Assembly: GCA_019704295.1 (NCBI GenBank) | Contig: AP024596.1 | Span: 1,248,001-1,312,000, forward strand | From: Sulfolobales archaeon HS-7 | GTDB lineage: Archaea; Thermoproteota; Thermoprotei_A; Sulfolobales; Sulfolobaceae | Length of the DNA stretch: 64,000 bases | Direction of reading: 5' to 3' | In this document: in pieces, positions 19,401 through 55,788 of the stretch | Layout: every line of letters begins with the position of its first letter | Position numbering within the stretch: the first letter of the stretch is position 1 | Notes under the pieces: generated by a model | Databases searched by the model: none | Told to the model about the DNA's origin: nothing | Seen by the model: only the letters and a program-made list of their open reading frames with translations | Position numbers and translations under genes: made by a program

Positions 19401-20653
19401 AGGTATGAACTCCTCGACATATTGACATTACATATTCCGTCTTCTGGAAAACTAACACTTACGGTCCCTCCTAATGGATATCCAGGGGGATGATTAAATA
19501 CGAAGTATATCGGATCAACGAACTCAGGAGGTGCCCCCGTAAGAGTAAACCACGTTTCAGGTTCTGGTAGAAAAGGTGGAGCACCTTCATCCAGATAGGT
19601 ATTATGAGTTCCATAATGTGGAAATATTACCACGCGAGGTCGTATATTTGATATATATGGTACGCATCCTTTCCCTATGTAAACGACCACCTCGTTAGTG
19701 TCATTAGACGCATTAACATATTTGTAACTGGCAAACAGTGAACGTATTTCCCACTTTTCGAAATTAAATCCGTGACCCGTCAGTCCAGTATCCGCTCTTG
19801 CCATTGCTTCCAAATTCAGAAGTGTTCCATTTGGGATTAGGAAAGTTTTATAATAATTTTTATAATTATAAAATTCGGATATAGAAGGACGAATATAATA
19901 CTGATTTCCTCCTGACGAATCGAGGTAACTACATCCAAAAAGTGATGGTATGCCAGGGTATATTGTTGGCACGCACGGAATGGGTGATATAAATACAACA
20001 CAAATTGATAGATTTACGTTGGATTGTTGTTTTTGTATGAAGTTTTCCTGGCTTAAAAGCCCCATTTGATTCTTAAGTAAAGATGCAATGCTTCCCTGTA
20101 TCTGATTCTGATCGTTACCTAGTTTAAAGTATTGGGGAGTTGGAGGGGCGGGATACCAGAAAATTTTTCCTGTGGATGTTACGAATCCTACTACACCCGT
20201 AATGTAAGGCACGGCAATCTCTTCCCCAGGGTTGAGTAATAGTTTATTGTTAACATTTTGACCGTTGGTGAAGAATGTAAACGCGCTAGATAAGGGAAGA
20301 CTGCACTGTCTCAATCCCTTAGGTATCTGCAGAGACGACGTAGATGATAATGATGCATAATACGGGATGCATGAAGCAGGGTTGTTAAAATCTATTATTA
20401 AAGGCTGGGAATCTGGCGTCGAGTAATACATTATACCTACAACGCAAAATGGAACATTACCACTGTTTACTAAAAATGCCAGAGTCCCATCTCCAAACAC
20501 GTTACCTTCGGTTTGCGAGGCTTGAGATTCTGTGTAAAGAGAAACCTGTGAGGCCTGTAACGAACCCTGATACAAATATAAATAAGCTGCTAATGCGCTC
20601 AGAATGACTAACAACAATAAAGCGATCCCAATTATCCCCAAAACATCATTCAT
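16406..20653 (-). CDS. Giant (1415 aa) pilin-headed extracellular protein A, putative pilus tip component
   Basis: N-terminal TM helix, pilin-like globular domain (NSGN.P..VVGI...LNPGE...VGFVTSTG), many N-x-S/T sequons and a C-terminal helical domain; paralog of 44374-48684; directly downstream of the ATPase/platform genes. Confidence 0.8.
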   Translation of the reverse strand: MNDVLGIIGIALLLLVILSALAAYLYLYQGSLQASQVSLYTESQASQTEGNVFGDGTLAFLVNSGNVPFCVVGIMYYSTPDSQPLIIDFNNPASCIPYYASLSSTSSLQIPKGLRQCSLPLSSAFTFFTNGQNVNNKLLLNPGEEIAVPYITGVVGFVTSTGKIFWYPAPPTPQYFKLGNDQNQIQGSIASLLKNQMGLLSQENFIQKQQSNVNLSICVVFISPIPCVPTIYPGIPSLFGCSYLDSSGGNQYYIRPSISEFYNYKNYYKTFLIPNGTLLNLEAMARADTGLTGHGFNFEKWEIRSLFASYKYVNASNDTNEVVVYIGKGCVPYISNIRPRVVIFPHYGTHNTYLDEGAPPFLPEPETWFTLTGAPPEFVDPIYFVFNHPPGYPLGGTVSVSFPEDGICNVNMSRSSYLPSPWLAYGITIYPPFSELANGPAFVTYYDSGTDRGCVTSYPSSWAGPYRGRYSVHPATLPIPCGFTDNGDIIYLYFAEDNCVNLCGYVHNFPIGYVGTLYIPAFIPPDGPLIITEIAIYNNIVRVNDKFQVMHITFKNIASNQNVYASGVSEANFTYSSSNPPPVNLPNIPGYTNYNDSWTFITPTYNARLNYLGIGTFSNNLFRNFTCFTPNTLSSSVTSSDTVYRGNIYMRPIEEVTFASQGDSFLQASFINALTGTNETISVNPGQKGVAFVPYEYEFNISSNSWINSITSNGWNVNGVTYSRTYSSYGQLPSSVNNLPSRYAFLSIIVNRNTNVIAMYSGSKQVNEFVGTNMNGIVLVSNGMSSCVVSTENVLTFPANTLLLIEGEPYPYNAFSNITGNFTEPSNCPLVLLNGTGGTLNLLSYTSSTFEQFSQEVLLPVINPTSVVFNFLKIPPSLENWTANITIFSPFLNVTGIVVQGGETYKINMTSSGLSSVLSSSSKEKIGIPAGAIAELDVSGFSYGGLCLTQTSNSPIGVIGLNYNNGRAFVYQEQISISTPITYKQNSNGVAVPVPIIIVNGENIQAFLELSNAPKPWDYFEFSSDLGIQPIMSDIGSGYVGTSSVYKALSEIEGVPGLSSFLCDMGWFGNGIGEYGAISALNYTAQNINEYWANLGSNIGLLLSTAGYTSLLPSGEYLMNALYSGINQQLLSSFMDQESTFGNIINGIGYGGSYQVYQAYLQTMNSVNRIETAGQKVLSMLAEQNSGSIQSCISQEESSIDNIINSMNDLTSFKDYRVNIQQLLTLKSDVDYSSNAMLNELNRMSGLNDPSLQMAAQSNILNLAMEIQGYIYQSLGEQIPFIGGQVLNSTGVEIHTKYVGVQSSYVFGVGQYPVMFMSSSDGYLPSSSNIFYPNSLSSSFLGAACHVVSPTYAEPLYPLEGVETGFPALTFNETTMTSTSLPVLLFNGFNTWVPVILQTNSYMLNSNGQIYEIVI

Positions 20654-37705: not shown

Positions 37706-38221
37706 TTATCCAACTAACCGTATGTATACTCCACTTATGTTCAGGTAAAGTATACCTCCAGTGTTCTGAGTTATTCCTCCGGAAGCCCCTATAGGAACGA
37801 CTAACCAATATATTACCCTGGGATATATCGTTAGGGGAAAAGTCACTTGTTGTTTATTAATTGAGTTATAGCCCTGAGAATAATTACATATATAATAGGT
37901 TCCCGTTAGCGGGGATAGTTTCCCGGTTTTAGGATTATACAGTAGAATATTGCTCACGCGTACTAGAAAATTTCCAACATCTTCAAAATAATACACGTAG
38001 TAACTACTGTTGCTATATACGTTAAGCGTTACTATTATTTTTCCCGAACTTATTATTGATTTTTCAACTGAGGATGAGATCCCCGCTCTATCGACGTAAT
38101 ATTCCCTAAGGAAATAGTAGTACGCATATCCCATCGCCATAAGGGTTATCAATATGAGTAATACCGATGCAACTGTTTCTGATACGGCGACTCTGCTTCC
38201 ATTTTTCTTTTCGACTCTCAT
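37706..38221 (-). CDS. Minor pilin 3b
   Basis: SRVA|VSETVASVLLILITL; paralog of 30421-30891. Confidence 0.85.
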   Translation of the reverse strand: MRVEKKNGSRVAVSETVASVLLILITLMAMGYAYYYFLREYYVDRAGISSSVEKSIISSGKIIVTLNVYSNSSYYVYYFEDVGNFLVRVSNILLYNPKTGKLSPLTGTYYICNYSQGYNSINKQQVTFPLTIYPRVIYWLVVPIGASGGITQNTGGILYLNISGVYIRLVG

Positions 38222-38230
38222 CCGATCACC

Positions 38231-38680
38231 CTATATCGAACTATAGTACTCATTTCCGTACATGGTTGTCACTATAATTCCCTGTAAATTGGGGTATTCT
38301 GATAAGTTAATGATAGTTGTCAACCTCTGTTGAGGGCTAATACATCTGCCCACCAAATTACTGGTTATAGCTATGAGAGATCCGTTTTGAACACCATTAA
38401 CCTCTGAAACGCCGAAAATCCCGGTGATTTTAGTTTCTATCGGTCCGTTATTAATTACGTTAACTACAATTGCTGGAGAACCGTCAACCGTTTCCTCGCA
38501 CAGTATAACTAATAAGCTCTCTCTATGCTTTAATACCTTCACTTCATCTATACACTTATATTCGTTGTTCACTTGAGATATTATCATCTGAGCATAAAGT
38601 ATTGACGATAAGGTTATAAGAAATATTCCAATTACGGCTATCATAACAATTATTGAACTTTGGGCTCTCTTGATTGACAT
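38231..38680 (-). CDS. Minor pilin 2b
   Basis: MSIKRA|QSSIIVMIAV; paralog of 29991-30416. Confidence 0.85.
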   Translation of the reverse strand: MSIKRAQSSIIVMIAVIGIFLITLSSILYAQMIISQVNNEYKCIDEVKVLKHRESLLVILCEETVDGSPAIVVNVINNGPIETKITGIFGVSEVNGVQNGSLIAITSNLVGRCISPQQRLTTIINLSEYPNLQGIIVTTMYGNEYYSSI

Positions 38681-38682
38681 GG

Positions 38683-39204
38683 TTACACCTCCACGTAGAA
38701 TCCATCACTCTTAAACAACAGTTGGTTTCCTACTACTTTTCCGTTTATCAGCACTTTTGCCCAATACACGATATTAGGCAACAGAAGAATATAATTATTA
38801 CCGTTAATGAAAATGGGATCTACCTGACCTTTATTATCACAAAAGGTTATCGTACCGTAATACCGCGAGCTACTTGTTGACCCTAGGTTAGTAATTGAAA
38901 GGGGTAAAAGTTCCTTGCTACCGTTTCCCATACACGCAGCAAGAACGTATACAGGTAAATTCGACGTATCCTCTATGTAAAAGGTGGCATTATATTGACA
39001 TGGATTTGTGGTAGAATTGTAAAAGTAAACCACTGTAAGGAGTTGTCCTCCCTCTTGAATTATTTCCCTCTCTTTCATTAACATACCACTGACAGCTGCA
39101 GGAACTCGCGAACCGAAATAATAAAGCACGAATGACATAGCTGCTAATATAATAAGTATTAGAAGCATGGTGGATATTAGTTCTGAGACTCCTCTGTTTA
39201 ACAT
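38683..39204 (-). CDS. Minor pilin 1b
   Basis: MLNRG|VSELISTMLLILII; paralog of 29484-29987. Confidence 0.85.
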   Translation of the reverse strand: MLNRGVSELISTMLLILIILAAMSFVLYYFGSRVPAAVSGMLMKEREIIQEGGQLLTVVYFYNSTTNPCQYNATFYIEDTSNLPVYVLAACMGNGSKELLPLSITNLGSTSSSRYYGTITFCDNKGQVDPIFINGNNYILLLPNIVYWAKVLINGKVVGNQLLFKSDGFYVEV

Positions 39205-39600
39205 TAAATTTATTTACGCAAAGGGAATATATATGCTTTAATTAACATTACGATGTATCCATTTAGTTATTAAGAGCTTCGAAGCTTTTGATATTTTACG
39301 TATAAGAAGTTGATAAAGGCGTTAACTCTCCCCAGTTTCAGTGAGACCGTTATTAGGAATTTAGTAAAAAATTATTATACTTTAACGTAATTTAAAAGTT
39401 ATTATCAAACCTAGAGCACCCCCCTGAACGAATTTCAATAAATTGAAGAGCCTCCCCACATTCTTAAAGTTAAGAAAGCCTCGGCCTATGAATCAACTTA
39501 CGCTCATTCCTGAGGTCGCTTCATCAACATTTTCCGAAATAATAAGTCCTATCAAAATAAATTGGATAAACTTTATATTCAGGTAGGTTGCCCTACTCTT

Positions 39601-41844
39601 ATGAAAACTGGTAGAATTGAGTACGACTGTATCTTTAAGGGCATCCTAGCTCTTACGTTAATAGTGCTCTCTGTTATACCGATTTACGCCATCGCTCAAA
39701 ATAACGGTAATTCAACTTCGTATAAGTTGACAGAGTTCTGCGAACAGAGTTACGATTACAAACACGGGAGGATAATTTACGATTCCGCTCTTAATGCAAT
39801 AGTAACTTACGAGCACTATTCGCAAGGATTTATAATAACTTATCTGAGTAACCATTCAAGCTATTTCGTTGGCGTTAATGGTTCAGTGTGTTACGTCTTC
39901 TTTGATCGGCATAATTCTCTACTTTACGTTCAAACTAACAACGCACTTTGCGTCTATAACGGTGATAAGGTAATAAAGGCGTTAAATTCGTTAGGCGGCC
40001 TTAACTCGAACTCGAGTTTTGAATTTTGCTACTCAGCTGTAGATACTTCAAACGGTGAAATCTATGCTCTCGTGGCTACGTATATTTATCCTAATGAAAT
40101 AGTGGCTATAAATCCTAACAATTACTCAGTGATGGTGAAAAAAATATCGTCATCAGGGCTGTCCACTTTTCTAAACTCCATAGTATATGATAGTTACAAC
40201 AATAAGTTGTTCGTATTGGTGGATAGGAACGGAAATAGAGGACAGATTTACTCCGTAAATCCGTCCAATCTTAACTTAACCCTAATTGCAAATACATCAA
40301 TTGGATTTGCGATGGGATATTATAAGGATAACCTTTACGTTTTTGTGGAGAACACCTCCCCGGGAAATTGTACTGTGGATGTGGTTAACACGGTAACGGG
40401 AAATGTTACTCCAACTAACTTGAAACTTCCCTCAACTAATCTAGCAATAAGCTTACCTAACGGAGAAATATACGCTGGCACGAGTAACGGTACGTATGTG
40501 ATAAACGCAAATACCACCAGTATAGCGGCGGAAATACCAGTGACTCCAAACATTCTCTCCGGAATGGCCTACGATCCCAGCAACGACCTCGTTTTCATAG
40601 ACGGTACGAACCTTTTCTTGATAGCTGAAGTTAATCCCGTGAGTAATAGCATAACCGGATACCTCAATGCCTATCCGGTGGAGCCAGATTCTATGGTGTA
40701 CTTGGGGAACTCGATGTTGTACTTGGGCACGCCTAACTCGCATTACCTTTATCAGGAACAGCTTTCCCCATTAAGGATTATAAATCTCTTCGGACCATTC
40801 AGCAATCGCATAACGTCGATAGTGTATGATCCTGAGAACGGTTATCTTTACATAGGCCTGTATCACGATGAAATAGTTGTATTCAATCCCTCTAACGACT
40901 CCGTGGTAAAGGAAATCTCGTATTATCCAGATTTCGCTCTCACTAATTGCCTTGATTACATTCCCTCACTGAATGAGGTAGTGGCGACTACTTCTACGGG
41001 TGTAGTTGGAGTAAACGCTACAGATAACTCGGTGATTTACGAGTTCAATACGACTTTCAATCCAACGCAGATAGCTTACGACCTAAGCAACAACAACATA
41101 TACTTAGCAACTCAGGTGCATGATGCCATTTGCGTAATAAACGCTAAGAACGGAAGCAAGGTTGGAACTATAAACCTAGACGTCTCAGCAATACCGGCCA
41201 TAGCTTACGATCCCAATACCAGTTATATTTACGCGGCAACGAGTAATCCATCGTACTTTGACGTGATTAACGCTGACACTGGGAGAGTAGTATACAACGT
41301 ATCTATAGGTTTCAGCCCTAACAAAATACTGTACAATCCAGTAAATAAGTTAATTTACTTACTAGGTACCAGCGGTAACGGCAGCGGTGTAATAAAGGTC
41401 TTTTACCCATACGGATTTTACTTCATCTCCACTATAGGGATAAAGGGTAGTCCGGGGGCATCGGTAATAATTCCTCAAACCGGATGCTTATTAATTACGT
41501 CCTCAGCCGTAATAACTGAATATCCAACCTTAACTTACTTCAACATGTTATCACTAACGCAAGTAGTAACTCAAACAACGTCTCAAACTACGACACAGAC
41601 TACCACTCAGAGCAACACTCAGACTACTACTCAGAGCAACACTCAGACCTCGACCCAGACTTCATCGCAAACGACAGTTGAGCAAACTTATACGTCTCAA
41701 ACTATTTCTAGCACCTCCACACTGACCTCCCCTAAGCCTCCTACAGTGACCTCAAGAAGCTCCTTTAATCCACTTTTAATAGCTATCGTCGTTATTGTGC
41801 TCCTTATCATCATAGGAATAATCCTCATCTTAAGGAGAAGATAG
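39601..41844 (+). CDS. YncE/YVTN-like beta-propeller surface protein with Thr-rich stalk and C-terminal anchor
   Basis: Repeated (A/V)YDP.N..LY blades, probably two propellers; TTTQSNTQ repeats; TM plus RRR; TATA at ~39571 favours the ATG at 39601. Confidence 0.85.
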   Translation: MKTGRIEYDCIFKGILALTLIVLSVIPIYAIAQNNGNSTSYKLTEFCEQSYDYKHGRIIYDSALNAIVTYEHYSQGFIITYLSNHSSYFVGVNGSVCYVFFDRHNSLLYVQTNNALCVYNGDKVIKALNSLGGLNSNSSFEFCYSAVDTSNGEIYALVATYIYPNEIVAINPNNYSVMVKKISSSGLSTFLNSIVYDSYNNKLFVLVDRNGNRGQIYSVNPSNLNLTLIANTSIGFAMGYYKDNLYVFVENTSPGNCTVDVVNTVTGNVTPTNLKLPSTNLAISLPNGEIYAGTSNGTYVINANTTSIAAEIPVTPNILSGMAYDPSNDLVFIDGTNLFLIAEVNPVSNSITGYLNAYPVEPDSMVYLGNSMLYLGTPNSHYLYQEQLSPLRIINLFGPFSNRITSIVYDPENGYLYIGLYHDEIVVFNPSNDSVVKEISYYPDFALTNCLDYIPSLNEVVATTSTGVVGVNATDNSVIYEFNTTFNPTQIAYDLSNNNIYLATQVHDAICVINAKNGSKVGTINLDVSAIPAIAYDPNTSYIYAATSNPSYFDVINADTGRVVYNVSIGFSPNKILYNPVNKLIYLLGTSGNGSGVIKVFYPYGFYFISTIGIKGSPGASVIIPQTGCLLITSSAVITEYPTLTYFNMLSLTQVVTQTTSQTTTQTTTQSNTQTTTQSNTQTSTQTSSQTTVEQTYTSQTISSTSTLTSPKPPTVTSRSSFNPLLIAIVVIVLLIIIGIILILRRR

Positions 41845-44270: not shown

Positions 44271-44331
44271 ACATAATGTGATTGGTCAAAATTTTTGTAT
44301 TATTCTGAAGTGGTCCGTGATACACAGTATT

Positions 44332-44348
44332 AAGAAATATTTATATAA
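44332..44348 (+). promoter_or_regulatory. Putative BRE/TATA for giant protein B
   Basis: aagaaataTTTATATA about 30 nt upstream of the ATG at 44374. Confidence 0.55.
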
Positions 44349-44373
44349 AACTAAGAACATAATATTATTTAGA

Positions 44374-47300
44374 ATGGATGATGTAATAGGCTTAATAGGA
44401 TTAGTCTTTGTCATAATAGTTTTAATTGGCGTTGGGTATTTATATGTATATTACAACCAACAAATAGAACAGTCCTATGAGAACTCTCTTATTGCTGAGG
44501 CCGAAGCAATGCAACAAGTGGGCTCCACTTTTGGTAATGGGACAATAGCCTATTACCAAAACCAAGGTAATGAGCCGATAGAGATAGTAGGGGTTATATA
44601 CTTTCCTGCAGGTTACAAACAGCCTTACGTTATAGACTTTAATTTCTCCGTCTCTAATTTACCCTTTTTTGCTAGTCCGTCCCTCCTAAAATACTATAAT
44701 TCATCCCTCGTAGAAGTTTACCCCGTTCCCAAGGGGAGCGAGTTCGAAGTTGTTACTAATGGAGAGGTAGGACTTGGCGGAGTATGGCTTGACCCTGGAC
44801 AAATAATTGGCGTTCCCTATGCATCTGGTGCAGTAGGATTTATAACGAATCTTGAGAGCACGTTTTACTATCCCTCCTATCCAATGTCTTACAAGCAAAA
44901 TGTCTCTCAACAGATTTCGGAATATGTAAACAATACAATTAACTCTATAAAAGCCGGTGCGTCTCAGGTTGCATCTCAAAATGAGGGAAAATCTCCACTA
45001 ATGTTAACCGTAAATGCAAACGGTATTTGTGTCTACGTTGATACTGCATCTGGGCTAGCGTATAAAACAACTGGAACTTTAGTAATTCCCCTAGTTCGAA
45101 ACACTACAGTATATATTGCGGCGTTAGGCGGAAACGAGTTGAGCTTTTCCTCATGGTCAGTTTCACCGTCCATAAGCAAGTTTAATGACAACAACCCAGC
45201 TAATATGTTCAACATAACGCAGAGCGAAACTATTACGGCGGAATCTACAAGTTTAAACACTAGTGAGTTTAACACTGGTAAGGATACGATAATTCCGGTA
45301 AGCGTAGATTTCCCTCACCCGGGTTTCCCGGCTGAAACAGCTGGGTATGCTGTTGTTAACAATAAGGTAACTATATCTAAGGATACCACGTTTGAAATAT
45401 CGAATCTCTCATGTATTCCCGTGTATGTTAATTCCTTTCCGTGGGCAACGAGCGGAAAAGCGCCTCGCATTGTTAATCAACAAATAATACCAAAGTGGGT
45501 AAGTCTAATAAGATATGTAAAGTGCGTCATAGACAAAGTTACTTATGAAGTTCCCGTATACAAAGTAGTCGAATGGGATTTCAGAACGTTGTGTGTAAGT
45601 TCGCCGGGTAATTATCAGTTGGGTTACGTTGGATGCACTATCGGTCCTCCTGTGAATGATGCGCCAAGTGCAATATACGAATACTACATAGACCAATTCA
45701 ATGTTCAAATTAACGTTGAATTCCCATACACAATATACTTATCCTATTACGTTAACATGCAAAATGGAAGTTTAGTCGGAGTAAATGGTTTCTCATACTC
45801 GAACTACACCGCAAACAACTTGTATACATGTAACGGGTGTCCAAATTACTACGTACCTAATACCGAGTACTTTAACCAAACCGGACTACTCCTACCGAAT
45901 ACTAGCGGAATATGGGCTTCGATAAAACCCACTAATGTTCAGGGAATAGAACAGTTAATATCCTATGCTCTTGCCCCAGGTTATTATAAGAATTTCACGA
46001 TATTAACGTCTGGGAACTTTTTGTCAAGTGTTACCGACGAGGTTACTGAGGAACAGTCGATAATTTGGATGCGGCCGTTAATTACTGTGCTAATAAATAG
46101 TCCTAATGATTCATTGCTAGAGGCAGGGTTTGTTAACGGGCAGTCAGGCAGTAACTCAACTGAGATCGTAAATCCGGGACAGATTGGGGCAGCCGTGGTC
46201 CCGTTTGGTTTTCAGTTAAACGTCTCAGCGAACTCCTGGGTTCAAAGTATAACATTCAATAAATGGAATATAGAGGGTATATACTTAAGCGGTAACATTC
46301 CGACGAGCAGTATACAGTATGTGAATCAAAAATTACAATCTCTTTACTCGTATTTAATCTCAAATATGAATAAAATTTGCTATTTTGGTAAATACAATAA
46401 TTTACTCACTTACTACAATAATAATATTCAAAACCTAAATAACACAGTAACCACCTCCAAATTAATAGGATTCGCGTCGTTACCGGTATTCAATTCCGGT
46501 ATGGTTGAAGCACTTTACAACGGAGGATATAACATAACATTAGTAATAGCGAACACGTTAGGAGGTACGTCGTTTGTAACTGACGGCATTGAAAACTTCC
46601 AAGTTGTTACCAATTACCAATTTGTCGCACCTGCAAACACAATGGTGCTTATTGTACCGGAAAGCATCACTACTTACTTCTTCTCAAACATTACAGGAAA
46701 CATAACAGAGGCAATGGGAAATGATCATTTATGTCTGTTAAACAGTTCGGGAGAGAATGAACCAGAGGTAGGTTCGCCTCCAACTTACTACTACCCGTTC
46801 CAAACATTTATATTAACTAAATCATACGGCGTTACAGAAAACTTCGTTAATTTACCCCCAAGGGTAGATCTAACTCCACTCTCCATGAAGATAACGGGAG
46901 TTGGCCAATTTAATATAACGGAATATGTTGATGACCAATTTGGTGGTTACAACTTCACGTATTCAGCTGGTACACCCTCGTCTACATCTCAATCTACGAT
47001 AACAGTAAAATATCCAGCAGGTTCCATAGTCTATATAAATGGCACGGGTGAAGTAACTTCCCAACCTCCTAATAATAAAATAACTATATGTTACCAACGG
47101 GGAGAAAACTCTCCTCAGGTATTATTTAACTCTCCAGATTTGGGCAGTAATAAACAGATCATTAATATGACTTATGTTTTTTCCGCTGCAGTTTACAACG
47201 TTATAATGGACAACGGGACATGGGAAGACGTGGCAATAGTATTGAATCCTTTGGTATATGCTATTGCCCATGTACATATAACTCCTTCAATATGGGACTG

Positions 47301-48684
47301 GTTAGCTTTCATAGCAGGAGTAGCAATTAATATAGTATTAATGGTATTGACTGCAGGGACGGATGAGGGGGGAATTGCGGGATTAACGGCGTTTCGAAGT
47401 GTTGATGATTTTATTCAGGCATTTGACAATGCTTTCGGTATAACAGCACTGAAAGATCTCGCATCAGATATAGGGGACGCAATCGCTGGAGATGCAGCAG
47501 ATAGTGTTTCGGACGTAATGGATAACATTTTAAGTGATCTCAGGGAATTTGTAAGTAAACCTCTTTTCAGTTTAGCGGGACAACTAGTAGAGATAGCTGG
47601 ATTAGCACTTCACAATAATATACTGATAGATATAGGAGATATAATGGTATTTATCAATTTTATAACCGGTATTTTAAACCTTAAGAAGATTATTCAGGAT
47701 ATAGGTGATTTTATAGACGAGGCCAGGACTGGAATCGGTAATATTATTAAAGATTTGAAAGGAATATCATCTAACCTGCAAGAGTTTCAAGAGGAGAGTA
47801 CTAAAATGGAGTACTTAATGAACGGTATATACTATTTAAATAATGGAATTGCTAAGATACAGGATGCACTTCATGATGCTGATTTCTTAGATTACGGTAC
47901 GGGAGTGGATGTACTTAAATGTCTCAATAACGCCAAGAGTGCATTTGAGGAAGCATTTCAGGGAGCAGACGTTCTTAATACACAGGGTCTGGACGACGCG
48001 ATTAATACGCTTAATGATATTCTAAATCATGGAGGAGGGCCAGCATCAACAATTGATCTACCTGAATTGGCTTCAGTTCTTAGTTCATCTAGGGACATAC
48101 TCGCTGAAACAGAGTACGCTGCATATGGAAACTTGATCAATATAGCGCGAAATCTAGTTGATATGGGGCAACAAATCTATTCGATATTATCTGAAGGCAT
48201 GGAAGTGTGGAACAATATAAAAGAGTTGGAGTACATACACGACTTCATAAATGCTGTAGAAAATGGGCAACCATTTGTAGTGTCTCAGTTATATATTAGA
48301 AATGGAGACAAATCAAATCAACTTTCGTTAACCATATCCTCTGTAACAATCGGAAATAAAACGTGTTATACTGTAAAAGGAACCGGAGGAAAAATTAATG
48401 CGAGTATACGTTTTAATACTCAAGGCGATTACAACATTGAGGTATGGGCGCAGACTCCCTCAATAAACTCTGGGAGTAAATCACTAATTTTCATTCCTTA
48501 CGGAGGTAAGATAACGAGCCCCTACAACCTACTAGACTCGTTCTTTAACGGATTAACGCTAAACATAGTTGCAGCTTACCAAATGTTCCAAGGTCAAACT
48601 AAGGTTATGCCAATACAAGTAACAATATTTGAGTACTCGAGTAATCAAATAAGTAATACTGGAGGATTCATAATTAACTATTAA
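44374..48684 (+). CDS. Giant (1436 aa) pilin-headed extracellular protein B, paralog of protein A
   Basis: Start moved to MDDVIG by homology with MNDVLG and by TATA position; shared blocks FG.GT.A...N.GN.P, MRP, VNPGQ, NSW..SIT...WN, PANT and FSNITGN.TE. Confidence 0.85.
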   Translation: MDDVIGLIGLVFVIIVLIGVGYLYVYYNQQIEQSYENSLIAEAEAMQQVGSTFGNGTIAYYQNQGNEPIEIVGVIYFPAGYKQPYVIDFNFSVSNLPFFASPSLLKYYNSSLVEVYPVPKGSEFEVVTNGEVGLGGVWLDPGQIIGVPYASGAVGFITNLESTFYYPSYPMSYKQNVSQQISEYVNNTINSIKAGASQVASQNEGKSPLMLTVNANGICVYVDTASGLAYKTTGTLVIPLVRNTTVYIAALGGNELSFSSWSVSPSISKFNDNNPANMFNITQSETITAESTSLNTSEFNTGKDTIIPVSVDFPHPGFPAETAGYAVVNNKVTISKDTTFEISNLSCIPVYVNSFPWATSGKAPRIVNQQIIPKWVSLIRYVKCVIDKVTYEVPVYKVVEWDFRTLCVSSPGNYQLGYVGCTIGPPVNDAPSAIYEYYIDQFNVQINVEFPYTIYLSYYVNMQNGSLVGVNGFSYSNYTANNLYTCNGCPNYYVPNTEYFNQTGLLLPNTSGIWASIKPTNVQGIEQLISYALAPGYYKNFTILTSGNFLSSVTDEVTEEQSIIWMRPLITVLINSPNDSLLEAGFVNGQSGSNSTEIVNPGQIGAAVVPFGFQLNVSANSWVQSITFNKWNIEGIYLSGNIPTSSIQYVNQKLQSLYSYLISNMNKICYFGKYNNLLTYYNNNIQNLNNTVTTSKLIGFASLPVFNSGMVEALYNGGYNITLVIANTLGGTSFVTDGIENFQVVTNYQFVAPANTMVLIVPESITTYFFSNITGNITEAMGNDHLCLLNSSGENEPEVGSPPTYYYPFQTFILTKSYGVTENFVNLPPRVDLTPLSMKITGVGQFNITEYVDDQFGGYNFTYSAGTPSSTSQSTITVKYPAGSIVYINGTGEVTSQPPNNKITICYQRGENSPQVLFNSPDLGSNKQIINMTYVFSAAVYNVIMDNGTWEDVAIVLNPLVYAIAHVHITPSIWDWLAFIAGVAINIVLMVLTAGTDEGGIAGLTAFRSVDDFIQAFDNAFGITALKDLASDIGDAIAGDAADSVSDVMDNILSDLREFVSKPLFSLAGQLVEIAGLALHNNILIDIGDIMVFINFITGILNLKKIIQDIGDFIDEARTGIGNIIKDLKGISSNLQEFQEESTKMEYLMNGIYYLNNGIAKIQDALHDADFLDYGTGVDVLKCLNNAKSAFEEAFQGADVLNTQGLDDAINTLNDILNHGGGPASTIDLPELASVLSSSRDILAETEYAAYGNLINIARNLVDMGQQIYSILSEGMEVWNNIKELEYIHDFINAVENGQPFVVSQLYIRNGDKSNQLSLTISSVTIGNKTCYTVKGTGGKINASIRFNTQGDYNIEVWAQTPSINSGSKSLIFIPYGGKITSPYNLLDSFFNGLTLNIVAAYQMFQGQTKVMPIQVTIFEYSSNQISNTGGFIINY

Positions 48685-48785
48685 ATTATTTAAAATTTTT
48701 TGTATTATTTTATATATCGATTAAGTTATATTGCCAGTGATCTTTATAACTTTTAAGGTAAGTTCGTTAGGTTTTAAATTCCTTA

Positions 48786-50155
48786 CAGTCTTATTCTACA
48801 AAAAATCTCAAAATTATAAGATATTATTGGGATAAATTGTACATAGAAATATAGGATTAAGTGAACTTAGAATGCGTTATAATATGATATGTTTAGTCAA
48901 AATCTGGTGTATTTTACAAGTTAGCGCTAGGTATCACGAGAAGTTCTAAATTTATCCTACGAGTTCAAAGCGAGATATGTAGTGAAACCCCCCTGGCTTA
49001 AAAAAGCTTAAAGGAGATTGGCGAGCTAATCAAACGGTAGGAACTTTTCTCCTGGTACCTCAAAATTAAACGAGAGTAAAAGGTGTAAGTAGTGTTGAGG
49101 AGTGCGTAGATCAGGTAGAGCTTGCTGTACAAACTGCCTATGAGTTCTATCCTAGCTATCCTTCTCCTAAAGCCCTTCTCGACACCTCAATCTGTAGGTC
49201 TCCACTAGGCTATAAGAATCTTTCTTAATGTTCTATATGAGAACGAAGTGCATTGGTTTCCCCCCATGTTTCACGTAAATCACGTCGTAATAGCAAGGTC
49301 CCTTGTGCTCTATCACCCTGTAGGCAACGTAAGTCTTGTCCTTAACCCTGTAGTACTTCACGGCAAGGAGCTGGGCAAAAAGCTCCTTGGCTCCCTTTAA
49401 GTTGCTCCTTCCGTTAATCACAATGTTCGCCGAAAAATCCTTGAGAATCTCGAGGTTAAGGAATCAAGCGTCTGCAACAACGTAGCTTATGCTGACGTGC
49501 TGTACAGTTTTGTTGACGAACTCTTAAGGAAATTCAGAGGGCTTTTATCCCTTCTAGCCGTGAATTGGGTTACCGCGTTACACCTCACAGGGGATAAGAG
49601 ATCTGCAGATCTAAGCATGGTCTATCCCGAGAAGAGTTTGTCTCCTACTCTTTCCGCCTCCTTCTCACCCACGCCTAGGGAGGTCTTGTCGAATTACAAC
49701 ACGATCTCCTTACTCACGAAAATTGAACACAGGACCCAGAACTTAAAGGTTCTACCCAGGAGTTCCCCTAATTTTTTCCATGTCTAATAAGAGATATGTA
49801 ATCCTTTCCTCTTTTTCCCAAGGGGGGATTTAATTTTCCTGATGATATCACGGGGGTTAGAGGAAATCGTATTAAGCACATCCTCTACTATTAGCGAGGG
49901 ACTTATCCCTCATCCTGTTTTCCCTCATACTGAGATTTCGGAGGTCCCTCGCTTAACTTCCACGTCCACATTTCTACTCTCTCGATAATACACATGGTAT
50001 TACTATACATGTAAAATCTAGGTTACACATCCTTCTCTGAGATCATTGTAGATTCTCTCCTCAGTTAAAATTTAGCTAATTTCTACTCTCCTGGACGAAA
50101 TTTTCTCATGTTTCAGAAATTTTCCATTTTTAGTAAAAGTGGTAAAATACGACCG
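48786..50155 (-). mobile_element. Decayed copy of the ISH3/IS4-like element, inverted
   Basis: Reverse complement is colinear with 31230-32617; right end cagtcttattctacaaaa. Confidence 0.8.
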
Positions 50156-50682
50156 TATTACCATTAAATTGTTATGATTGTCTTTTCTTACTGAAAAATC
50201 TTTCATAGGGGAAATATGCAGCAGTGTATAATGTGTAATTAATATAATTAATTATATAAACTAAAAAGTTGTAAACCGCGTTAGTATTAATCGAATTCAT
50301 TTAATTATAAGAGAAACATTATAAAATCAGTTTATTATCATTAATAGGAAGCGATAAAACTTTTTTAGGGGTAAGTTAAGTCTCCCTTCATAAATTCTAT
50401 TTAGTTAAAAGGTTTTAACTTAAAAGCTCACTTATTTTACCCGCCTTTCTCACAAATCACAATTGATAAATAGCACCTTAAATGTTTCGGTAACAACCCG
50501 CACTGTTATATTGATTCATAAATATAGTAATACGCAGTCTTTACCATTAACCTTTTTTCTCTCGTTCTCTTCCTTAAAAGATATTCAATCATAGGGAGAA
50601 GTCGTATTAAGTCCGCTGGTGGAAGAGAGTTGCTGCATCACCTGTCAAAAATTATTTATAGTGCATGTACTTACTTTTAATT

Positions 50683-52338
50683 ATGAAAAACGTATTAAAG
50701 TATCTCATTTTACTAATATTACTATTTGAGATCATACCTCTTTTCCATACTACTGCAGCCCATTCCCAGGTACAATCTTTTGGCGATATTTACGGGGTGT
50801 TACTCACTTCGATTAGTTCACCACAAGCTCAGTTTACCATGCTAAATGTACAGAGCGGTATAACATATCCTGGAAACGATACGGCAAATATCACGCATGA
50901 AAACCTACTATTGAACTTCTCCTCTTACAAGTACTTTTCTGGGACTATTAGCGTGTCCATTACAAACAATTATGAGTTTAACATTTACTCTCAGATCCCG
51001 CAGCTCTTGGACGTAATTCTCGAAAGTGATGCAGGAACCTACGTAATCTGGGCAGGTTTCAGTAATTCAACGGTTAAGGCAACAGGCTACGGCTATTTAA
51101 ACCGGACTGGGATCTTGGTTTTTCAATACCTTAACGGTTCTAATCTCGTTAACGTAACGTTTAATGTAAGACCCTCCTATAACACGTCAATTAACACGGC
51201 CCTGCAGTTGAAAGTCGCGTTGATAACAGGGAATGTTACCAGTGGGATTTCTTCCTTCCCGTTCTTTCCTCCTCCAATGAGGTATTCCCCAGTAAGCTTA
51301 GAGTACGGTCCTCCACTTCCGAATTTCTTAACGAATTACACTATTCAATACTCTGTATTAAATGGCGAACTTTATCCAGTGATGATATGGACTTACAATA
51401 GGACAACGCAAGAGGGTAATGTGCCTACAATTAATGACATCATCAATATGGAGTTTTTCGGGCAACAAGGAACCGTTAAAGCCTATTTGCAATCATTCGC
51501 AAGACTCTCGTCAGAGTTAAGTTCCCAATATTCATCTGTGGCAATATATTACAGACAGGAGATATTCGGACTCCAGATCTTTGGTAAATCCGGGGGAGGG
51601 ACTCCATTACCTATAACAGAAGTGGGAGGTGCTCCTGTTCTAGTAACTTATAATTCCTCAAACAACTCATTTGACTCCTCAGCATACATAGATGCGGAAT
51701 TTCCCGTGATTTTACAAACCCAAGGCGTAATTTTAGCACTTCAAGTTAATTCGTCAATAGGTTTCTACTTATATTACGAAAATACGGGACATAATGTCAC
51801 TCCGGACATTATAACCTCTACTTCTAATACTACGGTTAACTTGAATGGAAAGCAGTACGTTGCGGAAGAAATTAACGTTGAATCAAGTAGCTTATATTCT
51901 ATATTTAATGTCACAGCGCCGACGGGAGTTTATAGCATTTATGTTCAAACGTTGTCGGGATTAGTGCAGGTCAATCCCTCAAACTATTTCATCTTCGAAG
52001 GTAGACTTTTCGTGTTTTCTGACCCTTCGTCCACCTACTATATTGTGTACTCCATTGCTCCTTCGAATACCTCAACTACATCATCCTCATCTTCTACCAC
52101 AACGTCGAGTCCTACCTCAACTACATCCTTAAGTCAGACTACCCAATCGAGTTCGGCATCTACAACAACTTCCACTGGAACAACGTCCTCAACCTCAATT
52201 CAACAGACATCCACATTAATTCAGCATACTTTACCTATATCATTGTCAAAAGGTGGAAATCCAACAATTTACATTTTAATAGTCATTATTGTAATAGTAA
52301 TGATAGGAGTTGTCCTACTTCTTAGAAGCAGAAGATAG
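50683..52338 (+). CDS. Membrane-anchored surface glycoprotein with Ser/Thr-rich stalk
   Basis: Signal peptide, many sequons, S/T tract, TM plus RSRR. Confidence 0.8.
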   Translation: MKNVLKYLILLILLFEIIPLFHTTAAHSQVQSFGDIYGVLLTSISSPQAQFTMLNVQSGITYPGNDTANITHENLLLNFSSYKYFSGTISVSITNNYEFNIYSQIPQLLDVILESDAGTYVIWAGFSNSTVKATGYGYLNRTGILVFQYLNGSNLVNVTFNVRPSYNTSINTALQLKVALITGNVTSGISSFPFFPPPMRYSPVSLEYGPPLPNFLTNYTIQYSVLNGELYPVMIWTYNRTTQEGNVPTINDIINMEFFGQQGTVKAYLQSFARLSSELSSQYSSVAIYYRQEIFGLQIFGKSGGGTPLPITEVGGAPVLVTYNSSNNSFDSSAYIDAEFPVILQTQGVILALQVNSSIGFYLYYENTGHNVTPDIITSTSNTTVNLNGKQYVAEEINVESSSLYSIFNVTAPTGVYSIYVQTLSGLVQVNPSNYFIFEGRLFVFSDPSSTYYIVYSIAPSNTSTTSSSSSTTTSSPTSTTSLSQTTQSSSASTTTSTGTTSSTSIQQTSTLIQHTLPISLSKGGNPTIYILIVIIVIVMIGVVLLLRSRR

Positions 52339-52561: not shown

Positions 52562-53725
52562 ATGCAGGTTAGGGAACACATAAGGGTTCTAACTTTACTA
52601 ATCATCTGCCTATTTATTTGTACGATAGCGTGTTCAAGTGTAATTAGTTTATCAAGCAATTATACTATTGCAACTATTCAGGATAGTCAAAACGCTCACC
52701 CTACATGTGTTGTCTACGATCCTCAAAACAACGAGATCTACGTTACGAACTCAGGGGATAATGAGGTTTTAGTAATAAACGCTTCTGATAATAAGGTCCT
52801 AGGAGTTATTTATACAGGGCAATGTCCATACGGCGTTCTATACGATCCTCAAAACAACGAGATCTACGTTACGAACTCGTTCTCTAACACCGTATCTGTA
52901 ATAAACGCTTCCGATAATAAGGTAGTGTACACGATAAAGGTAGATCAGTGCCCTCGCGGCATAGCCTACGATCCTCAAAACAACGAGATCTACGTTACGA
53001 ACTCGTTCTCTAACACCGTATCTGTAATAAACGCTTCCGATAATAAGGTAGTGTACACGATAAAGGTAGATCAGTGCCCTCGCGGCATAGCCTACGATCC
53101 TCAAACAGGAATTGTCTATATAGCCTACTACTTTACGGATCACTTGGCATATATGAGTTCCATGACCTACGAGGTTAAGGGGAATATGACTGTAGGTAGG
53201 GGTCCGTTTGCGTTAGCTTTCGTATCAGGAGAGATCTACGTTACGAACTCGTTCTCTAACACCGTATCTGTAATAAACGCTTCCGATAATAAGGTAGTGT
53301 ACACGATAAAGGTAGATCAGTGCCCTCGCGGCATAGCCTATGATCCTCAAACTGGAGAACTTTACGTAGCTAACTACGGGAGTAATACGTTATCCGTGAT
53401 AAACACATCTAATAATGAAGTTATTGAGGAGATATCCGAGAAGTCTCCTTTTGGAATTTCATATGATCCTCAAACTGGAGAACTTTACGTAGCTAACTAC
53501 GGGAGTAACACGATATCCGTAATTAAAATAACAGGTGCAGTGCTTAATAAGACACAAGCACAAGAAACGAGGACGACCACTTATCATAGTTTACAGGTAG
53601 CTAATGGTAACTACTCGAGCGTAAACCCTCACAAAAGTGTAGTTAGAGGTAATATAGTGATTTTATTTATTGGAATAGTGATTTCAAGTATAGTTATACT
53701 CCTATTGATTAGGAAATGGAGGTAA
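52562..53725 (+). CDS. YncE/YVTN beta-propeller surface protein
   Basis: 42-aa blades YDPQNNEIYVTNSFSNTVSVIN; signal peptide and C-terminal TM. Confidence 0.9.
   Translation: MQVREHIRVLTLLIICLFICTIACSSVISLSSNYTIATIQDSQNAHPTCVVYDPQNNEIYVTNSGDNEVLVINASDNKVLGVIYTGQCPYGVLYDPQNNEIYVTNSFSNTVSVINASDNKVVYTIKVDQCPRGIAYDPQNNEIYVTNSFSNTVSVINASDNKVVYTIKVDQCPRGIAYDPQTGIVYIAYYFTDHLAYMSSMTYEVKGNMTVGRGPFALAFVSGEIYVTNSFSNTVSVINASDNKVVYTIKVDQCPRGIAYDPQTGELYVANYGSNTLSVINTSNNEVIEEISEKSPFGISYDPQTGELYVANYGSNTISVIKITGAVLNKTQAQETRTTTYHSLQVANGNYSSVNPHKSVVRGNIVILFIGIVISSIVILLLIRKWR
52715..53520 (+). repeat. Intragenic 126-bp repeats, several identical at DNA level
   Basis: tacgatcctcaaa at 52715, 52841, 52967 and 53093; identical block reused at ~53231-53340; a second blade type duplicated at ~53339 and ~53462. 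Confidence 0.9.
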
Positions 53726-54660
53726 ATAAAAATCTTAGCCTTTTTATTTTTAAAATATTAAAAGTTAGATTATAGAAATAATGTCTGGACGCACTTTCTT
53801 TCGTTTTTCTGGTCTCTCTATATCTTAAAGGAAGGGTTTACCGCTTTATGAAAGTTTTTATCTTTATAAAGGTTCAAGCGAAGACCCTATCCATGATGGT
53901 TAGTCTCATTACATGAAAACGTAAATATGATATACACCTCTCAAGCACGCTCATAAATGGATTAAGCGTCGTCAAGACCCTTAAGCGAGGGTCTGTGAGG
54001 TATGCCTCCTTTCCGATCAGCAATTTCGTACCGAACAAAGTCGCTATGTTCATCATGGAAGTGAAACCATCAGGGGTTGTAGAACCCTCTAGGCACGACG
54101 GAGGGGTAGGAAATCGCTAAATGGAGAGATATCCGTCTTGTTAGGGAAGAGATCGCCGAAGATCGTCTCATTCTATTTCGTAGACTTTAATACCTCAAAG
54201 CGTTATTTTCTTGAGTTAGCGAATTGCATAATATTTAACATAAGCCGTTCAATTCTAGAAATAATTGATTACTTTCACTTTATCCCATGTGATCTACCCA
54301 GCCCTATGGATTTCGCTTTCCAATGTGATCAAGGGATCTGCAGATACTAAGGACAATCCGTGTTCTTCTTCACGTTCAGCGTACTCTACACAGCACTGTT
54401 GATCAGAGTAGATTTCTCAATAATAATTACGACTCGGGTGTTTGTCACTGCGTAAATTGCCGTAACTAACATACTTAATTTAACCTATATTTGTAAAGAA
54501 GAGGTAATCCCATGCTTTTTTCGCGTTAAGGCGAAAATCAAAAAGTGACAGAATATACCTTAGAGCCCTATGAAAAAATTTCTTAAATCTTTAATACTAC
54601 AGAGAAAATCCAGGTTTAGTTGATGATAACTTTATATATCACTGTATGGAAATTTCCATA

Positions 54661-55788
54661 ATGATAAAATTAAAAGCTTCCCTAAGTGTTATATTTGTTT
54701 TGTTTATTGTTTTCATGCCAGTGGGTGCTTCTTTTTCTTTTGGGTTCGGAGATATTACACACACACTAATTAAAGTAAGAAACGTAGAGTTCGGAGATAA
54801 TCAGACATTATATCATCCCTTAATATCAAGAGATATATACGATACTAATCACCACCATATAAAACATCCACTTTCAATAAGTCCTTACAACTCGTACACT
54901 TCATCTCCAGCTCCAACAGGTATAGCTAATTACGGGCTCGACAACAAAACTGGATCATCGTATCTTTTATTAACTAATACAGTTATTGGTTATACGGATA
55001 TACACTCTGTTTCCGCGTACTGCCCACAAGCTACTAACAGTGGTGTAGGTACCACATATGCGACTCTACAATTAAACGTTGTTTTGATGGCAAATACCAG
55101 CTACGGAACATACGCATACTGGTTACAAGATGTGGGAAGCTTCCAGACAAATACTTCGACAATTACATTTATAGACAACGTGTGGAATCTGAGCGGTAAT
55201 CCCTCATGTTTTGCTTCGTCCTCTATTTCTGGTTCTGGACAGGTGTCTAACTCCCAGGGACAATGCTTCTATTACGACGTAGGACCAAGTTACACCTTTT
55301 CGACGCCTTTTGCCTACGAATACGTTATAAACGTCTCCTACAACAACGTCACTGGTAATATATTAGTGCAAATGGGTTATGCACTTCTTCAGAACGGAAG
55401 TTCTACGTTGAATACAGGTATAATTTACTATGACAACATCACAATAAACCAGTTTAACGCTACGGGAATAGCGATAGCCGTAGATGGGAACTCCTATACA
55501 CCAAACGCACTTTACTATGATGCTGAGCTCGTATGGGGAGGAGGAGGAAATGGTGCAACCACGAATTTCAATTCACTCAATTCAGAGCTTGGACTTTATT
55601 ATCTCTCATCCAGCGGAACCTTAACTCCGATGCAGACTTTATATACTTTTGGTTCAGACACTGGGGAGACTGCAGGCAACGTTAACGTTACAATGGTAAA
55701 CGGAATACCAACAGCTGTTAATGGTCAGGAAAGTCTAACGTTTTTAACGGATTCGTTTAATTACATCCCAGGTAACTTAATAGATTAG
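54661..55788 (+). CDS. Thermopsin family acid protease (peptidase A5)
   Basis: PAPTGIANYG, LQLNVVL, YWLQDV, DNVWN, YDAELVWGGGGNG and FGSDTGE motifs; signal peptide. Confidence 0.9.
   Translation: MIKLKASLSVIFVLFIVFMPVGASFSFGFGDITHTLIKVRNVEFGDNQTLYHPLISRDIYDTNHHHIKHPLSISPYNSYTSSPAPTGIANYGLDNKTGSSYLLLTNTVIGYTDIHSVSAYCPQATNSGVGTTYATLQLNVVLMANTSYGTYAYWLQDVGSFQTNTSTITFIDNVWNLSGNPSCFASSSISGSGQVSNSQGQCFYYDVGPSYTFSTPFAYEYVINVSYNNVTGNILVQMGYALLQNGSSTLNTGIIYYDNITINQFNATGIAIAVDGNSYTPNALYYDAELVWGGGGNGATTNFNSLNSELGLYYLSSSGTLTPMQTLYTFGSDTGETAGNVNVTMVNGIPTAVNGQESLTFLTDSFNYIPGNLID

Follow-up and report, generated by a model that had tools for sequence, protein, structure and literature searches.

What might an acidic, all-helical domain do near the end of a giant and otherwise beta-type surface protein, and could it enter a membrane? 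The question is raised by gene B, which lies at 44374-48684 on the plus strand of a 64,000-nucleotide stretch of the genome of Sulfolobales archaeon HS-7 (NCBI GenBank assembly GCA_019704295.1, contig AP024596.1, positions 1,248,001 to 1,312,000). We refer to this whole stretch as the window; coordinates given without a prefix follow its numbering, and residues of protein B are counted from the Met encoded at 44374. The protein is related to the accessory proteins of the bindosome-type type IV machines of Sulfolobales, which to our knowledge are poorly understood, and we know of no established role for the accessory protein itself.

An earlier note on this DNA, made from the sequence alone, had interpreted the C-terminal part of B as a membrane-inserting, pore-forming or translocator-like domain displayed at a pilus tip. 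We find that protein B as a whole is a much enlarged, new variant of the bindosome accessory protein, and that its helical tail is a module without known relatives. The reading that we favour, tentatively and with considerable doubt, is that the module is exported and adapted to acid, and that its apolar helices engage lipid or another hydrophobic surface from outside.

Architecture and composition of protein B

An intact open reading frame (ORF) at 44278-48684 (plus strand) carries gene B. Translation most likely begins at the ATG at 44374, yielding a protein of 1436 amino acids (aa), because a TATA-like box precedes this codon by ~30 nt and the relatives of B begin at an equivalent Met; in the three relatives compared, this Met is followed by two polar residues, then x-[IL]-G, then an apolar helix. 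Hydrophobicity was scored on the Kyte-Doolittle (KD) scale over segments of 19 residues (19-mers), on the translocon scale (Hessa sum) and on the Wimley-White octanol scale, the latter with Asp and Glu either charged or neutral. The resulting layout is as follows.

44340-44348, plus strand: TATA-like box, ~30 nt 5' of the ATG at 44374, in keeping with a leaderless-type start
44374-48684, plus strand: gene B, 1436 aa; giant pilin-headed surface protein, an enlarged bindosome-type accessory protein
44374-44454, plus strand: N-terminal pilin-like apolar head, M-D-D-V-I-G followed by a hydrophobic helix (KD 2.88, Hessa sum -3.1)
44458-47283, plus strand: beta-type ectodomain with 27 N-glycosylation sequons; Lys plus Arg (K+R) 3.7%
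47284-47301, plus strand: boundary motif P-S-I-W-D-W, aa 971-976; D-W invariant in proteins B, C and D
47299-47358, plus strand: apolar helix 1, aa 976-995; marginal hydrophobicity, central Asn
47359-47622, plus strand: acidic flank T-D-E-G-G and acidic amphipathic helices, 88 aa; K+R 4.5%, Asp plus Glu (D+E) 17%
47623-47682, plus strand: apolar segment 2, aa 1084-1103, with two Asp and one Asn
47683-48273, plus strand: acidic amphipathic helices with Gly-rich breaks, aa 1104-1300; K+R 6.1%, D+E 16.2%
48274-48681, plus strand: C-terminal beta domain, 136 aa, with 2 sequons; K+R 6.6%, Asn, Ser, Thr and Tyr (N/S/T/Y) 35%, AlphaFold2 strands of low confidence

The change of composition at the boundary motif is abrupt. 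Over the 942 residues of aa 29-970, D+E amounts to 6.8%, K+R to 3.7% and N/S/T/Y to 34.5%, with 27 sequons, whereas the 330 residues of aa 971-1300, hereafter the module, hold 15.2% D+E, 4.8% K+R and 19% N/S/T/Y and not a single sequon; the last 136 residues are again of beta type and rich in N/S/T/Y. At 100-110 degrees the module has a mean hydrophobic moment of 0.29, double the 0.14 of the ectodomain, and two AlphaFold2 runs both placed continuous helices at aa ~973-1296 and strands beyond, at a predicted local distance difference test (pLDDT) score of only 35-45. KD values above 1.6 are reached by 19-mers in the head, in helix 1 (2.34) and in segment 2 (2.04), and nowhere else in B. The earlier note's description of the locus is thus borne out: a switch at P-S-I-W-D-W after ~970 residues of sequon-rich beta-type sequence, an acidic amphipathic helical region, two internal apolar stretches at the places it gave, and a final beta domain.

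Helix 1 occupies the same aligned site, over ~20 residues, in C, a paralogue within this genome, and in protein D of a neighbouring genus, at an identity of 26-34%. Its flanks are kept in both, with D-W before it and an acidic stretch of the G-x-D/E-E-G type after it; the conservation of segment 2 is loose. An acidic, Lys/Arg-poor window of 200 aa occurs in 3 of the 1184 long ORFs of the genome. One of these three (G000:C1:1208922-1209884, minus strand) encodes a 320-aa secreted glycoprotein with a canonical anchor, and the third (G000:C1:79398-80375) looks like a cytoplasmic deacetylase-type enzyme.

Location of the module

The genome itself served as the yardstick for the side of the membrane on which the module lies: ORFs of at least 200 aa without a transmembrane segment (n=802, mostly cytoplasmic) were set against putative secreted glycoproteins (n=63). 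K+R is 13.3% (standard deviation 2.2) in the former and 4.6% (standard deviation 1.7) in the latter. A value as low as the module's 4.8% is found in 1 of the 802 ORFs and in 0.3% of their 330-aa windows, and both parts of the module are low, with 4.5% in the stretch that separates the apolar segments and 6.1% beyond segment 2. The equivalent modules of the paralogues A and C and of D range from 2.9 to 6.0%, with two sequons in that of A and one in that of C. Since its K+R content is in line with that of the secreted glycoproteins and not with that of the ORFs devoid of transmembrane segments, we infer statistically, from composition, that the module probably lies outside the cell, where it would consequently be exposed to acid. 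The C-terminal beta domain is of secreted type and carries two sequons, so that the tail should cross the membrane either not at all or an even number of times; on the simplest reading there would be no crossing after the N-terminal head, and the entire tail would be outside. The missing sequons were considered as a sign of a cytoplasmic module and rejected as such, their absence being insignificant for this composition (2.3 expected, P=0.08).

A second reference set comprised the sequon-rich ORFs of the genome with a C-terminal apolar 19-mer (n=43). Their Hessa sums have a median of -3.5 and range from -8.2 to +0.95. In 43 of 43 the 19-mer is followed by a short tail that contains Lys or Arg (1-15 such residues, two or more in 42 of the ORFs), and nearly all of these ORFs terminate within ~15 residues of the 19-mer. 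These canonical C-terminal anchors, of a SlaB-like grammar, resemble helix 1 in setting an apolar stretch of ~20 residues after a long glycosylated ectodomain, but they differ from it in their Ser/Thr-rich linker, their greater hydrophobicity and their short Lys/Arg-containing tail. Helix 1, with a Hessa sum of -0.75, is less hydrophobic than 35 of the 43 anchors; downstream of it come the acidic flank T-D-E-G-G and then 440 more residues, with no cluster of Lys or Arg. A simple cis anchor of this kind is therefore disfavoured, since the acidic flank and the 440 residues stand where the short Lys/Arg-containing tail should be, and the earlier note's view that the segment is something other than a simple membrane anchor agrees with this departure of helix 1 from the uniform pattern of the 43. 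The neighbours of gene B at 39562-41844 and 50665-52338 encode textbook anchors, with a Ser/Thr-rich linker, about 22 apolar residues and an Arg/Lys tail of 2-5 residues. The set of 43 ORFs is usable as a clean internal reference for the prediction of surface anchors in this organism.

Hydrophobicity and acid chemistry

On the octanol scale helix 1 scores -8.7 kcal/mol in its neutral-pH form and -11.1 kcal/mol in its acid form. It is apolar on all faces (mean hydrophobicity 0.62-0.68, moment 0.27-0.31) and therefore needs to be fully enclosed, whether by protein or by lipid. Segment 2 has a Hessa sum of about +4.7 (a hand calculation, the segment not being among the 19-mers scoring below 1.0), so that it would not be recognised as a transmembrane helix at neutral pH. 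Its octanol value falls from -4.3 kcal/mol in the neutral-pH form to -10.6 kcal/mol with its Asp protonated. With the N-terminal head as a reference (-11.5 kcal/mol in both forms), helix 1 and segment 2 both stand at the head's level in the acid form, and none of the other 19-mers of B goes beyond -7.7 kcal/mol. The module is computed to carry a net charge of about +16 at pH 3 and -33 at pH 6.5.

The earlier note had proposed that protonated acidic residues would favour insertion at pH 2-3. The gain computed for segment 2 upholds the chemistry of this proposal but leaves it without a trigger: the habitat is always acid, protonation is therefore permanent, and it cannot serve to set insertion off. 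It follows that the apolar parts would have to be shielded by the amphipathic helices, or else embedded from export on.

In the pHLIP peptide, the T domain of diphtheria toxin and the pore domains of colicins, protonation of embedded or flanking Asp and Glu favours the insertion of helices, and a drop in pH is the trigger. The module is like these acid-driven inserters in the aromatic N-cap and acidic C-flank of helix 1 and in the ~6 kcal/mol gained by segment 2. It differs from them in lacking any homology, in being permanently at pH 2-3 and in that its buried resting state is hypothetical.

Searches for relatives of the module

When the C-terminal 469 aa were run with full HMMER against 1.84 billion representative proteins, the only hit was the protein itself. 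A word-indexed homologue search likewise gave only the query, twice; low-complexity words saturate this search, which missed the same-genome paralogues too. Whole protein B has no match in Pfam or NCBIfam, and at E<=5 the Pfam rows for the module are all sub-threshold and of coiled-coil type (NPV_P10, TMP_N, Baculo_PEP_C). Sequence (phmmer) and profile searches of the PDB gave no significant match and, at E<=10, no toxin chain, tblastn against phage records gave nothing, and scans of metagenome and species-genome contigs turned up no relatives. In 47 genomes of the family, and by profile search in 151 of the order, the module was found in B, C and D only, C and D sharing its first 130-170 residues with B.

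The kinship proposed by the earlier note, with toxins of the ClyA/Hbl/YaxAB type or with translocators of the type III secretion system, finds no sequence or profile match. Foldseek comparison of the low-confidence model with the PDB gave a best E of 0.06 and template modelling (TM) scores of up to 0.34, with no row at E<=0.001; the rows for MakA, ClyA and YaxAB, with TM scores of 0.14-0.19 and root-mean-square deviations of 34-41 Å, stand among chemoreceptor and G-protein-coupled receptor rows and are noise. The Pfam models HlyE and HBL have no row at E<=5 in the module. A comparison with the ESM Atlas yielded scores of 0.76-0.81, which is chance level, with SseC (0.76), PT-TG and Tle1-like clusters among them. 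The SseC translocator lead that this offered failed: PF04888 (SseC) has no match in B or anywhere in the genome. No type III secretion system or chaperone gene was recognised, though no search was aimed at injectisome or chaperone genes. The arrangement as a hairpin or tongue that the note had suggested also falls away, as a gap of 88 residues separates the apolar segments and they are not an adjacent pair.

ClyA-family toxins (ClyA/HlyE, Hbl/Nhe, YaxAB/XaxAB and MakA) are, like the module, all-helical over ~300-350 aa and amphipathic with an apolar segment, and Hbl and Nhe take the Sec route out of the cell even though they contain apolar parts. They differ in possessing one contiguous tongue or hairpin in mid-domain, whereas the module has two separate 20-mers, the first at its very start, and in being free soluble toxins, whereas the module is fused to a 970-aa carrier. 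The type III translocators (SseC/SipB/IpaB/YopB, PF04888) combine, as B would, a delivery filament with a helical protein bearing moderately hydrophobic membrane segments; B differs in leaving PF04888 unmatched, and its module has no adjacent pair of transmembrane helices.

Family and gene context

The genome holds three giant paralogues, A, B and C. Two further features of the window enter the comparison.

16406-20653, minus strand: paralogue A, 1415 aa; helical tail, with a polar stretch at the helix 1 site
37706-39204, minus strand: three small ORFs (171, 149 and 173 aa), divergent from B and 5 kb upstream of it

The head and first beta region of B match those of D, A and C at E 5e-18 to 6e-50, and the ectodomain is 29-35% identical to those of the paralogues along parts of its length. 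The tails are less uniform: A shows no significant similarity to B there (E 0.16), and C (1300 aa) has ~130-170 residues after the boundary motif in common with it (28.9 bits). Outside this genome, full-length relatives were found in one other genus only, among the 47 genomes of the family and the 151 of the order. In that neighbouring genus (G111), the gene for protein D (1177-1190 aa) follows immediately on those for a T2SSF-type platform protein, a T2SSE-type ATPase and three small pilins, with family matches at this locus to T2SSE (1e-35), to T2SSF (2e-13) and, weakly, to Pilin_N; this gene layout is of the bindosome (Bas) type. D also has, near its C-terminus, an additional Gly-rich apolar segment of GxxxG type (aa ~1123-1141; L011:6776-10348) that B and C lack.

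A shorter form clarifies where the module comes in. The head and first ~180 aa of B are homologous (E 1e-4) to a 514-aa protein of another genome, G055 (L022:445-1989, minus strand), which adjoins a TadC-like platform gene and starts with M-Q-D-T-L-G followed by an apolar helix. The N-terminal head is kept in A, C, D and this protein. The 514-aa form ends in beta-type sequence, without the W-D-W motif, the apolar helix or the helical tail, and the module is therefore an addition restricted to the giant forms. The 514-aa protein fits the description of arCOG08524, a secreted bindosome accessory protein of ~500 aa, "either an adhesin or a S-layer protein" (Makarova et al. 2016, PMC4858521). With the arCOG08524 type B shares, through the 514-aa form, its head and first beta region, and it is alike in its sequon-rich, beta-type sequence. 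It differs in being about three times as long, with 1436 aa in place of ~500 all-beta residues, in adding the 330-aa helical module and a C-terminal beta domain, and in having no adjacent ATPase or platform gene of the BasE/BasF type, whereas such genes adjoin D and a TadC-like gene adjoins the 514-aa form.

The giants seem to be loosely paired with three-gene cassettes. Paralogue C lies ~8 kb from a cassette of three small pilin-type genes (L018:328-1834, which equals G000:C1:1604327-1605833, for the cassette; L018:10236-14138 for C). The cassette of B would be the three small ORFs at 37706-39204, which have no Pfam match at E<=0.01 and are unconfirmed as pilins. Between C and its cassette are genes for a glycosyltransferase, an epimerase, Nramp, Rieske and ferritin-like proteins. 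Among the ORFs next to B that were scanned for families, secreted propeller proteins and a thermopsin were recognised, and the three small upstream ORFs remained without a family. A few kb 3' of B, in a region dense in secreted proteins, stand an NHL-repeat beta-propeller protein and a thermopsin-family acid protease (52562-53725 and 54646-55788). The ~2 kb immediately 3' of B (48685-50664) contain no convincing gene, only short overlapping ORFs, the longest being of 96 aa at 49497-49787 and of 62 aa at 49233-49421 (minus strand); the stretch could represent sequence decay, an RNA or a regulatory region. A polymorphic toxin, with a conserved carrier, a variable toxic C-terminus and an immunity gene, was rejected for now as an account of B, given that no plausible gene follows B and that B and C share the first ~130 aa of the module.

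Discussion

We propose that a lineage-specific module was added onto a bindosome-type, pilin-headed surface protein, and that the entire module is exported to the acid side of the membrane. It would consist of Asp/Glu-rich, Lys/Arg-poor amphipathic helices and of one ~20-residue helix that is apolar on every face, bracketed by W-D-W on one side and by the acidic T-D-E-G flank on the other, with segment 2 becoming apolar only when its Asp are protonated. The amphipathic helices may cover the apolar segments until a lipid layer or some other hydrophobic surface is met, whereupon the module would grip that surface from outside and provide the giant protein with a second, non-canonical hold. One or two of the apolar helices could engage a membrane in this way; the candidate targets are membranes, either foreign or the cell's own, and mineral surfaces of hydrophobic character. 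True pore or translocator activity would be a minority sub-case of this reading. Of the membrane-inserting domain put forward by the earlier note, then, the architecture, the probable exterior site and the acid chemistry hold, and the kinship with toxins and translocators finds no support.

Several results weigh against our reading. In shuffled modules of the same composition, a 19-mer as apolar as helix 1 arises in 10% of cases and one as apolar as segment 2 in 33%; given these frequencies, the weight of helix 1 derives from its positional conservation in C and D. Paralogue A has a helical tail that contains no apolar helix, so that such a tail can occur without one. No search returned a homologue of known function, and the AlphaFold2 models, whether obtained with a 4-row alignment or from the single sequence of the module alone (pLDDT 35.1 and 44.6), are unusable. 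The argument for an exterior location is one of statistics, not of measurement. Helix 1 stands at the weak end of the anchor range, yet inside it, with 8 of the 43 anchors weaker still, so that a true stop-transfer helix is possible. The absence of a pH trigger at an external pH of 2-3, finally, forces us to assume the shielding of the apolar segments, and this shielding, like any engagement of lipid, is inferred.

The most serious alternative, which we nonetheless consider unlikely, is a soluble helical bundle or oligomerisation stalk, in which the apolar helices are permanently buried, for instance in the core of a trimer, a filament or a tip, and the module only spaces or presents the beta domain, with no membrane activity. 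The tail of paralogue A, the amphipathic periodicity throughout the module, the coiled-coil type of all weak Pfam rows and the apolar segments, which go little beyond chance for their composition, are all consistent with it, as is the pilin-like head, which gives the family a precedent for hiding an apolar helix within an assembly of proteins. A 20-mer whose every face is apolar, capped by the aromatic W-D-W and kept at the same length in three diverged members, would nevertheless be unusual for a soluble bundle, and the helices are short and split by Gly-rich loops, with no single long stalk among them. Very improbable, in our estimate, is a conventional topology, in which helix 1 is a stop-transfer helix with a cytoplasmic tail, or helices 1 and 2 form a transmembrane hairpin around an 88-aa cytoplasmic loop, stapling the ectodomain to the membrane at both ends. 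The KD value of 2.34 and Hessa sum of -0.75 of helix 1 lie within the range of real anchors in this genome, aa 971-1300 are free of sequons, and the D+E content of 15% is nearer to the cytoplasmic 13% than to the secreted 6%. The single-pass and hairpin forms are disfavoured all the same by K+R values, 4.8% overall and 4.5% in the loop, that fall far under the cytoplasmic range, by an acidic flank without the Lys/Arg cluster expected from 43 of 43 anchors, by the hand-calculated value of segment 2 on the translocon scale, by the secreted-type beta domain with its sequons and by the insignificance of the missing ones.

An improbable further alternative is that the module acts in trans, as a pore-former, translocator or fusogen-like device borne at the end of a bindosome-type filament to the membrane of another cell and inserting there. 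A module that is probably exported and acid-exposed would suit this role; with its marginal hydrophobicity and acidic flank, helix 1 would be able to travel through the Sec channel first and insert afterwards, segment 2 turns apolar only on protonation, and the giants are linked to pilin-type cassettes and, in the neighbouring genus, to a T2SSE/T2SSF machine. The SseC, PT-TG and Tle1-like clusters of the ESM Atlas point the same way, but at chance-level scores. Against a device of this kind stand the lack of sequence, profile or fold similarity to pore-formers and translocators (the fold comparison resting on a model of low confidence), the 88 residues that separate the apolar segments, which are thus no hairpin, the lack of a partner or immunity-like gene in 48685-50664 and the want of a pH trigger in a constantly acid habitat. 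The target cells of this group, moreover, are covered by an S-layer. In its boldest form, which we regard as distinctly improbable, the module would be an always-armed, acid-adapted insertion device, brought by a leaderless pilin-headed giant on a bindosome-type type IV filament, whose neutral Asp and Glu enter the membrane of a neighbour, become charged at its near-neutral cytoplasmic side and lock there. If true, this would be the first archaeal contact-dependent pore, translocator or fusogen-like system, unrelated to the bacterial families.

Significance

In this genome the accessory protein has tripled in size, is present in three copies and has acquired a tail without a database match. 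The tail is chemically unusual for this genome, being acidic, poor in Lys and Arg and endowed with protonation-dependent apolar helices. It presents a clean case for studying how marginally hydrophobic helices traverse the archaeal Sec channel. Should it prove to be only a structural bundle, the tail would still mark the site at which the family has grown. If, as in the reading that we tentatively favour, it engages membranes, it would reveal how an extracellular membrane-active protein is built by an organism of pH 2-3 habitats, and would give the giant subunit a function.

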